Positions 26,393-26,756 of a stretch of DNA of 64,000 bases are shown in pieces; the first letter of the stretch is position 1; every line of letters begins with the position of its first letter. The notes below the pieces were generated by a model. The model saw only the letters and a program-made list of their open reading frames with translations, was not told the DNA's origin and did no database searches. The position numbers and the translations under genes are program-made. The DNA is from a bacterium (GTDB lineage: Bacteria > Patescibacteriota > Minisyncoccia > Minisyncoccales > GWA2-46-15). The stretch lies in assembly GCA_030704795.1 (NCBI GenBank), contig JAUYCZ010000028.1, positions 83,202 through 147,201 on the forward strand. The letters are read 5' to 3'.

Positions 26393-26463
26393 TTGCGGGG
26401 GCCGGAATTGCACCGGCGTCCCAAGGTTATGAGCCTCGTGAGGTACTACTCCTCCACCCCGCG
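26393..26463 (-). tRNA. initiator-like tRNA (CAT) with non-canonical D and T loops
   Basis: The acceptor CGCGGGG...CCCCGCA-A gives the C1:A72 mismatch and A73 of bacterial tRNA-fMet, and the anticodon loop is CTCATAA. The D loop AGTAGTA lacks GG and the T loop is TGCAATT instead of TTCRANY. The 5' 37 nt overlap the GIY-YIG ORF. Confidence 0.65.
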
Positions 26464-26702
26464 ATGTATTGCTTTATTCTTTCTTTGTTTTTCAATGATT
26501 TCAAGTATCGTTCGGCCTTGACTGCCCTTGCTCTGCTTGGAAACTCTTTTTTGTATAACGGTTGCCACGGCTGATAACGCCTCGTGTAACTCGTCTTGGT
26601 GTTGTCATTATGTTCTTTTAGCCTTCTTTCGATATTATTCGTCTGGCCAATATAATATCGATCGGTTGATTTACTAAATAAAATATAAACGATATATTTC
26701 AT
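26427..26702 (-). CDS. small GIY-YIG (URI-domain) nuclease family protein
   Basis: Contains YIVYILFS...RYYIGQTNNIERRLKEHN. The last 11 codons and the TAA stop are encoded by the 5' half of the tRNA, so the true functional C-terminus is uncertain. Confidence 0.8.
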   Translation of the reverse strand: MKYIVYILFSKSTDRYYIGQTNNIERRLKEHNDNTKTSYTRRYQPWQPLYKKEFPSRARAVKAERYLKSLKNKERIKQYIAGWRSSTSRGS

Positions 26703-26706
26703 TTAA

Positions 26707-26756
26707 CCAAGGTTATGAGTCCCGCTGTAAGCGGGATACTACTCCTCCACCCCGCG
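26707..26756 (-). pseudogene. duplicated 5' fragment of the initiator-like tRNA (acceptor/D-arm 20 nt and anticodon-loop 13 nt identical, middle replaced by hairpin TCCCGC-TTACA-GCGGGA)
   Basis: Direct-repeat alignment with 26421-26463. It ends 4 nt before the GIY-YIG ATG and has no 3' half. Confidence 0.7.

Follow-up and report, generated by a model that had tools for sequence, protein, structure and literature searches.

SegA-G are free-standing GIY-YIG homing genes of T-even phages. They lie outside introns, among or next to tRNA genes, are present in some relatives and absent from others, and are presumed to spread via break repair with co-conversion of flanks; one of them, SegB, lies in the T4 tRNA gene cluster (PMC2330249). 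Islands and prophages that target tRNA genes by means of a tyrosine integrase, with attL and attR ends, leave a functional tRNA together with a partial duplicate, and can form tandem arrays at one tRNA. Here we describe a cassette that shares these features with both. It was found in a 64,000-nucleotide (nt) stretch of contig JAUYCZ010000028.1 (positions 83,202 to 147,201 of the forward strand; assembly GCA_030704795.1) from a member of the Patescibacteriota, which we refer to throughout as the window. The cassette has three parts, a small nuclease gene, a partial or "decoy" copy of a tRNA, and a conserved hairpin within that copy; it is tied to tRNA genes and the host tRNA is intact. By analogy it would work most like the free-standing homing genes of T-even phages and would also resemble tRNA-targeting islands, but because its protein lacks a DNA-binding domain and it has no integrase, it fails the defining features of Seg genes and tRNA islands respectively.

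The enzymes of the Seg genes, and I-TevI, have a C-terminal DNA-binding domain, whereas the cassette protein is a bare catalytic domain. Unlike the Seg genes, the cassette carries a hairpin-bearing decoy of its target, overlaps the tRNA gene, and is found in cellular chromosomes of several phyla while being rare in phages. It shares with homing endonucleases the occurrence of occupied and empty alleles of one site among relatives. Compared with tRNA islands it has no integrase and is approximately 0.3 kb rather than 10-100 kb in size; its duplicate can be the 5' part of the tRNA and has a replaced internal segment, and its recombination is presumably homologous and not site-specific. REP/RAYT elements, the ends of IS200/IS605 and integron attC sites are similar in that a short conserved imperfect palindrome, with a stem kept by compensatory changes, is tied to one small nuclease-type gene. 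The cassette differs from them in that its enzyme is a GIY-YIG protein and not an HUH or tyrosine enzyme, and in that its hairpin lies inside tRNA-derived sequence beside the cognate tRNA gene and is not dispersed. A full-text literature search, whose coverage is incomplete so that an earlier account is possible, gave no account of a small GIY-YIG gene that has tRNA fragments and a conserved hairpin at its sides, and we see a small but real chance that the mechanism of the cassette is new in kind.

Layout of the cassette and its nuclease

All features of the locus lie on the minus strand of the window. The decoy tRNA (tRNA*) is a 50-nt partial tRNA copy at 26756-26707. Its 5' arm (26756-26737, CGCGGGGUGGAGGAGUAGUA) is identical to nt 1-20 of the initiator tRNA at 20 of 20 positions and contains the acceptor 5' strand, the D-stem 5' strand and the D loop. 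A 17-nt hairpin, UCCCGCUUACAGCGGGA (26736-26720, UCCCGC-UUACA-GCGGGA), then stands in place of CCUCACGAGG, which corresponds to tRNA positions 22-31, and is followed by the 3' arm (26719-26707, CUCAUAACCUUGG), identical at 13 of 13 positions to the anticodon loop and the 3' strand of the anticodon stem. Four nucleotides, TTAA (26706-26703), separate the decoy from the ATG at 26702 that starts a stand-alone open reading frame (ORF) of 91 amino acids (26702-26427, Pfam PF01541) encoding a GIY-YIG nuclease of the Slx1/UPF0213 type. The ORF runs into the intact initiator tRNA(CAU) (26463-26393, called as tRNA-Met(CAT) by ARAGORN), overlapping its first 37 nt. These 37 nt supply codons 81-91 (AGWRSSTSRGS) and the third base of the preceding Ile codon, and the TAA stop (26429-26427) is U36-A37-A38 of the anticodon loop.

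The insert as a whole measures 293 nt, one repeat period from start to start of the tRNA repeats. In the 371 nt that run from the end of the upstream gene orf170 (26765) to the tRNA 3' end (26393), no ORF other than the GIY-YIG gene has a family match, the remaining short frames overlapping either it or the tRNA, and neither the ORF list nor Pfam gives an integrase in this interval. The locus has the island-like trait of direct tRNA repeats (20 nt and 13 nt) that flank the insert while a functional tRNA is kept, the repeat here being the 5' part. The intact tRNA scores 53.4 bits with the Rfam tRNA model against a gathering score of 29, and is continuous, with no intron model matched at E<=10; at the same threshold the upstream partial copy gives no tRNA call, no intron and no other Rfam family. 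The first-pass annotation of this DNA, which had described a partial copy, an ORF and an intact tRNA and had pointed to scoring of both copies, was correct to the base in every coordinate and identity.

These observations bear on whether the insert is a known kind of tRNA-gene insertion, such as a group I intron that brings its own endonuclease, a tRNA gene in split or permuted form, or an island's att repeat. Group I introns are common in tRNA genes of Patescibacteria (PMC13011429), and islands duplicate tRNA ends. However, the tRNA is continuous and complete and matches no intron or ribozyme model, no integrase or other gene lies between orf170 and the tRNA, and the insert is just 293 nt; a scan of eight related loci at the Rfam gathering score also found no group I intron or ribozyme, only tRNAs being matched. 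We regard this as the least probable of the explanations considered here, and as very unlikely.

The protein matches the Pfam GIY-YIG model over residues 2-75 with 68.5 bits against a cutoff of 22.6 (E=6e-19). Across 37 homologues there is no change at Y6, Y17, G19, R27 or E64, a set that includes both tyrosines of the GIY/YIG motif, the Arg and the Glu that binds metal; H31 is conserved in at least 90% of these homologues and invariant in the 24 closer ones. An AlphaFold2 model (predicted local distance difference test score 87.6) has strands at 3-10, 15-21 and 46-54 and helices at 24-31 and 57-69, giving the beta-beta-alpha-beta-alpha core fold, with the tRNA-encoded tail modelled at low confidence as an extension of the last helix. 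Foldseek matches to the model are GIY-YIG domains. The closest solved structures are the UPF0213 proteins 1YWL (E=4e-8) and 1ZG2 (E=3e-7) and the nuclease domain of Slx1 (4XLG, 6SEH; 30-34% identity, root mean square deviation 2.5-2.7 A), whereas I-TevI matches far more poorly (15-18% identity, Foldseek E approximately 0.4) and the group I intron endonuclease model TIGR01453 reaches 24.4 bits against a cutoff of 56.05. The Slx1/UPF0213 proteins, which include YhbQ and YazA, are therefore closest to the cassette protein in both sequence and fold.

By Pfam the GIY-YIG domain fills the 91-residue protein, of which the last 11 residues are tRNA-encoded, and no C-terminal DNA-binding domain is present. 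Neither a zinc finger nor an Slx4-type partner was found, the protein being a single domain and no neighbouring gene belonging to the cassette; in this it differs from eukaryotic Slx1, which has both. Judged from sequence and model, the protein is in architecture a bare nuclease domain of the structure-selective type and not an I-TevI or Seg homing endonuclease, so that its earlier description as a homing-type nuclease does not apply at this level. Slx1 cleaves branched DNA and stem-loops (PMC7017083). Stem-loop cutting fits a hairpin-associated enzyme, and by analogy a plausible substrate would be the conserved hairpin, or else hairpins that extrude from the tRNA gene. A search of the literature found no reported genomic association of UPF0213 proteins with tRNA genes or decoy hairpins. 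Comparison with PHROGs gave only weak partial matches, phages themselves gave 12 weak matches, and the family is rare in phages.

Recurrence at tRNA genes of several phyla

A profile scan of one genome per species gave 315 relatives, and we studied the loci of the best 80 of these. They come from Patescibacteria, Bacteroidota, Ignavibacteria, Verrucomicrobiota and others, and include isolate assemblies such as those of Parapedobacter sp. SGR-10 (L022) and Saprospirales bacterium GYS_P2D (L019). At 67 of the 80 loci the small ORF has a tRNA on its own strand no more than 100 nt away, compared with approximately 0.6% expected from how densely tRNAs occur in the rest of these loci (0.043 per kb), and direct repeats of pieces of the adjoining tRNA flank nearly every ORF. 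At least 15 tRNA isotypes are targeted: fMet, Pro, Val, Leu, Asn, His, Ala, Ser, Gly, Asp, Gln, Thr, Arg, Trp and Phe. The same layout in dozens of independent loci is more than chance would produce. Together with the score of the intact tRNA, this recurrence bears out the earlier proposals that the link between a GIY-YIG cassette and the tRNA gene is a specific one, with the tRNA left intact, and that small GIY-YIG ORFs are systematically flanked by tRNA fragments. The wider protein family comprises approximately 6,000 clusters at 50% identity (E<=1e-3), or 335 at E<=1e-10.

A separate search with the window protein returned 36 relatives; of those at 55-71% identity, most end in YIAGWRSS(T/I)S(R/G)GS, the tRNA-encoded tail, and over a range of 45-74% identity homologous ORFs retain this tail. 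Three have an N-terminal extension, AGWRSG...SGTHN, that arises by in-frame translation of the upstream partial copy. Both the fusion of the ORF to the tRNA and the upstream copy have thus been conserved through approximately 40% protein divergence. Database proteins with tRNA-encoded N-terminal extensions that run through the decoy are P0017, P0023 and P0036, and tRNA-encoded C-terminal tails are found in P0002-P0022 and P0027-P0030. These tails, such as IAGWRSS (from tRNA-fMet) and ELVDASR (from the D arm of tRNA-Leu plus the UCCCGA of the hairpin), mimic conserved protein motifs.

Two layouts, mirror images of each other, are found. The window, most Patescibacteria and some Bacteroidales have the order tRNA*-ORF-tRNA (type U), in which the ORF usually ends inside the tRNA, with its stop 10-37 nt into the tRNA in about 17 of 24 cases. 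Most Bacteroidota and Ignavibacteria have the order tRNA-ORF-tRNA* (type D), in which the ORF starts 0-90 nt past the tRNA and ends inside tRNA-derived sequence. In three loci (L048, L008 and L012) decoys flank the tRNA on both sides. An earlier suggestion had been that the cassette inserted after CCUUGG in the tRNA gene and brought a new 5' half; this boundary is indistinguishable from others, relatives also lie 3' of the tRNA, and the position of the hairpin varies. Tandem arrays are also frequent, with four units before tRNA-Pro in L038 and two units each in L018, L019, L076, L056 and L002. Two Brumimicrobium metagenome-assembled genomes that are approximately 90% identical have two units (L056, 5001-5665) and one unit (L058, 5001-5261), a difference of approximately 400 nt that is, on comparison of the two sequences, a recent copy-number change. 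Nearest-neighbour ORFs share the tRNA isotype in 39 of 57 cases, and switches, for example from fMet to Phe or from Gly to His, are seen only at identities of 62% or less.

In every decoy examined an internal stretch of the tRNA has been swapped for a hairpin with the core UCCCG/CGGGA (UCCCGN-loop-NCGGGA). In the window this hairpin has 7 base pairs and a folding energy of -10.5 kcal/mol (z = -4.6). Counting those with perfect pairing, there are 73 such hairpins in the 48.5 kb adjoining the ORFs and 44 in 594 kb elsewhere, an enrichment of approximately 20-fold. The stem has compensatory variants (UUCCGC/GCGGAA and CCCCGC/GCGGGG) and its sixth pair may be A-U (46), C-G (38) or G-C (11), while the loops, of 2-12 nt, are not conserved in sequence. 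No Rfam family covers the hairpin, either in the window region at E<=10 or in the eight related loci at the gathering score.

The first-pass annotation had allowed that the locus might be a decaying local duplication of the tRNA 5' half around an unrelated small ORF. Slippage can yield partial tRNA copies, and the upstream copy is not a functional tRNA. The differences between the two copies are nonetheless confined to one block, which is a perfect and conserved hairpin, while the sequence on either side of it is 100% identical, and the same design is found in dozens of loci of several phyla. As the 17-nt hairpin is a cassette component conserved across phyla and concentrated beside the ORFs, we consider decay of a duplication very unlikely.

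The hairpin lies within the decoy at all loci, at no fixed distance from the ORF. It sits in the D loop in L021, L025 and L015, at tRNA positions 22-31 in the window, L008, L012 and L024, and in L027, L041, L010 and most Bacteroidota it takes the place of the entire anticodon arm; some loci, such as L023 and L008, have two hairpins. Because it is found 5' or 3' of the ORF according to the layout, the hairpin is part of the decoy and does not serve as an expression signal for the ORF. Two ORFs on tRNA-Ala (L012 and L024, 55% identity) are the nearest relatives of the window ORF that do not target an initiator tRNA. Their hairpins stand at the same positions 22-31 as in the window, and their arms have been converted to tRNA-Ala, which indicates that the cassette passes on its hairpin position, whereas the sequence of the arms comes to be that of the local tRNA.

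Both sides of the hairpin are bordered by 11-30 nt that track the local tRNA. The earlier expectation that the flanking piece is related to the target is supported by the identity of the arms in the window and by 11 of 12 fMet loci, in which lineage-specific D-loop variants are common to the decoy arms and their own adjoining tRNA. The decoy 3' arm is kept as C[U/C]CAUAACC in most relatives that target an initiator tRNA. These shared variants suggest that decoy arms are either continually matched to the neighbouring tRNA or copied from it.

Arms of this kind might also serve as guides. The Slx1-like domain of approximately 80 amino acids would bind the hairpin as a handle, and the two arms, either transcribed or exposed as single-stranded DNA, would pair with the tRNA gene and so direct the cut. 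A conserved hairpin that always lies between arms that follow the local tRNA is as such a system would have it, and the protein is too small to read a DNA sequence unaided. Recombination homology explains the arms equally well, however, the stems have no G.U strand asymmetry, and there is no precedent of a guided GIY-YIG enzyme, so that we think a guided nuclease improbable. If it were true, no smaller nucleic-acid-guided nuclease system would be known, and none before it would have used a GIY-YIG enzyme.

Some decoys are close enough to a tRNA to mislead annotation programs. ARAGORN miscalls hairpin-bearing decoys as tRNA-Glu(UUC) in L050 (5243-5320) and L072 (4836-4914 and 5244-5322), and one miscalled decoy scores 43 bits with the Rfam tRNA model, above gathering. 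Spurious tRNA annotations in genomes of Bacteroidota are likely to arise repeatedly from hairpin decoys.

Filled, decayed and empty copies of one site

Across Parcubacteria the gene order gatC-gatA-orf170-[cassette]-tRNA(fMet)-tRNA(Met)-tRNA(Asp)-pheS-pheT is conserved, and the fMet-Met-Asp order of tRNAs is also seen in L006, L081-L083, L111, L134 and L138. In the window the left border of the insertion site is orf170, a gene of 170 amino acids outside the cassette (27277-26765, stop codon 26767-26765), separated from the start of the decoy by 8 nt. It has no Pfam or NCBIfam match, and throughout Parcubacteria it is retained in the interval from gatCA to the initiator tRNA, at 27-57% identity, in filled and empty loci. 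Downstream, also outside the cassette, are a canonical tRNA-Met(CAU) (26334-26259) and a tRNA-Asp(GUC) (26243-26169), both called by ARAGORN and Rfam and part of the tRNA cluster upstream of pheS. In the 58-nt spacer between tRNA-fMet and tRNA-Met (26392-26335) the segment GUGGUUCGAUAAACUCACCAC resembles a T arm and may be an old tRNA fragment. An apparent GIY-YIG relic at the C-terminus of orf170 was rejected as a tblastn artefact that arises from the tRNA*-encoded tail.

Relatives of this site were collected from metagenomes with GatA as the anchor, and the identities that follow are those of GatA to the window. The site is filled with a complete cassette, as in the window, in L082 (identical to L001) and L083 (76%). 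In L081 (79%) it is decayed: the decoy and hairpin are kept and the ORF is reduced to its last 10 or so codons, having been lost by deletion between two ATTG microhomologies. It is empty, with the tRNA directly after orf170, in L086 (74-75%), L087 (70-71%), and L111, L134/L137 and L138 (54-56%), so that the same syntenic locus does provide the empty sites sought from the outset. Upstream of these empty sites the flanks hold no remnants of the ORF end (p 0.18-0.93 against shuffles), while decayed copies do (p<0.003). The possibility that the empty sites are hidden deletion remnants was rejected, a CAATACA similarity in L086 and L138 being no better than shuffles. On a neighbour-joining tree of GatA the filled, decayed and empty states interleave in both subclades, and re-invasion among relatives of this clade is possible.

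Two of the empty sites hold other sequences of interest. In L111 (6160-6520) a different small ORF, of approximately 120 amino acids and helical by eye, lies between tRNA-fMet and tRNA-Met, which suggests that small inserts in general tend to land in this tRNA cluster. In L087 (280-400) two copies of a direct repeat of approximately 24 nt, TTAAGGGAGGTGCGGAACCAAAAA, precede the initiator tRNA.

The empty sites also bear on the unusual initiator tRNA of the window. This tRNA has the initiator hallmarks C1.A72, A11:U24 and the anticodon loop CUCAUAA, with two of the usual three G:C pairs in the anticodon stem (29:41 is A:U, 30:40 and 31:39 are G:C). Its elbow is non-canonical, the D loop (AGUAGUA) lacking G18 G19 and the T loop (UGCAAUU) lacking the T54 Psi55 C56 pattern, and it had been suggested that, were this the only initiator tRNA, the cell would depend on a chimeric tRNA with unusual loops. 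We compared 23 distinct initiator tRNAs from the loci examined. The 5-nt strands of the anticodon stem vary among them, and the two loops covary, a D loop without GG (AGUAGUA/AGCAGUA) being paired with a UGC T loop (UGCAAUU/UGCAAAU) in 15 of 15 cases and a D loop with GG with the canonical UUC T loop (UUCRANU) in 8 of 8. The unusual pair is present in all five empty sites. The odd loops are therefore a clade trait and the tRNA is not chimeric; on this comparison the window tRNA is the normal initiator gene of its clade, a clade of Parcubacteria, at its normal locus. Neighbouring elongator tRNAs are canonical, and several relatives have C33 (CCCAUAA).

The decayed copies are also informative about how the initiator tRNA may be transcribed when its site is filled. 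The ORF and the tRNA leave no space between them in which a separate promoter could lie, and a promoter-like TTGAAA-17-AAGAAT lies inside the 3' end of the ORF, 13 nt upstream of the tRNA (26504-26476). The last 30 or so nucleotides of the ORF survive in two independent decayed copies (L081, 3080-3041, and unit 2 of L006, 5284-5316), and the surviving promoter-like stretch may carry the promoter of the tRNA. From the lack of room, the candidate site and its survival, the tRNA is probably transcribed from within or upstream of the ORF, that is, either together with the ORF or from a promoter inside its 3' end. RNase P cutting at tRNA +1 would then strip the ORF message of its last 11 codons and stop, giving a non-stop message that would limit synthesis of the nuclease. 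The tRNA-encoded tail of the protein would be a by-product of the overlap.

A model for the spread of the cassette

We consider it rather probable, though well short of certain, that the cassette is a selfish, recombination-dependent element that rides on tRNA genes without breaking them. How it moves, and what the hairpin does, we infer as follows. The nuclease would break the tRNA gene, or a structure formed by it, within the stretch whose place the hairpin takes in the decoy. Homologous recombination with a filled allele would then mend the broken empty one, and the homology available at the broken 5' end would be longest with the native 5' flank plus the decoy arm. As the hairpin is non-homologous, repair synthesis would have to run on through the ORF until the intact tRNA is reached, so copying the cassette. 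A break in a filled allele could be repaired without loss of the cassette, and classical self-immunity would then not be needed. The two layouts could arise if a unit of tRNA* and ORF recombines with the tRNA gene via the arm on one or other side of the hairpin, and the same homology could account for integration on either side, tandem amplification and the continual matching of the arms.

The chief alternative to a selfish element is a domesticated or addictive host module, a pair of nuclease and decoy RNA that is inherited vertically and repeatedly lost. Its variants include a hairpin that regulates its own gene, a pair resembling a type III toxin-antitoxin system, and a tRNA-directed nuclease of defence or quality control. 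The ORFs are under purifying selection, which counts in favour of this reading as it does of the selfish one: the ratio of nonsynonymous to synonymous substitution rates (dN/dS) is 0.13 for L082/L083 (dS 0.38), approximately 0.1 in three of the six pairs of L038 tandem copies, those with dS of approximately 0.3, and 0.07 between the L019 copies. The identities of the nuclease and of GatA covary, L081 keeps its hairpin and decoy after loss of the ORF, and the hairpin sequence is conserved across phyla. A search for defence systems with PADLOC gave weak partial similarities, only to candidates that contain GIY-YIG domains. The sole observation that bears on a toxin-antitoxin-like pairing of RNA and nuclease is that the hairpin adjoins the ORF. 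A pair acting in trans, however, needs neither adjacency to the cognate tRNA nor identical pieces of it, the occurrence of the hairpin 5' or 3' of the ORF is contrary to a fixed regulatory role, and the range of at least 15 tRNA targets, the arrays, the copy-number differences and the clean empty sites suit a selfish element better. We therefore hold a host module to be unlikely, if more credible than a guided nuclease.

Several points weigh against a selfish, mobile cassette. Near-identical cassettes at different tRNAs were not seen among the examined loci, and pairwise locus comparisons gave no sign of recent horizontal transfer, the identity of cassettes being similar to that of their flanks (L008 and L040 could not be aligned). 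The identities of GatA and the GIY-YIG protein covary with a Pearson coefficient of 0.90, which is driven by close pairs, and a Spearman coefficient of 0.47, implying that inheritance in this clade is largely vertical with repeated loss; much of the history of the cassette there may be of this kind. The presumed target, the intact tRNA, persists beside the cassette, and only the decoy has the replaced segment, so that there is no classical self-immunity. The absence of a DNA-binding domain leaves sequence-specific targeting unexplained, as is the conservation of the hairpin sequence. The stems gave no signal of G.U against A.C strand asymmetry that would tell RNA from DNA, and the promoter call at 26504-26476, made on a consensus match, is a weak one.

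If the selfish reading is true, a minimal nuclease gene can colonise essential and highly conserved genes without the splicing used by introns and inteins and without an integrase; it would keep the tRNA whole and use a disabled, hairpin-marked copy of it as a recombination handle. This would give a role to bare proteins of the UPF0213/Slx1 type, which are widespread. The cassette also accounts for a set of annotation artefacts, namely decoys that are called as tRNA-Glu(UUC) or score as tRNAs, and ORF predictions with tRNA-encoded tails or N-terminal extensions. For the organism of the window it means that the initiator tRNA is normal for its clade and not a damaged chimera.

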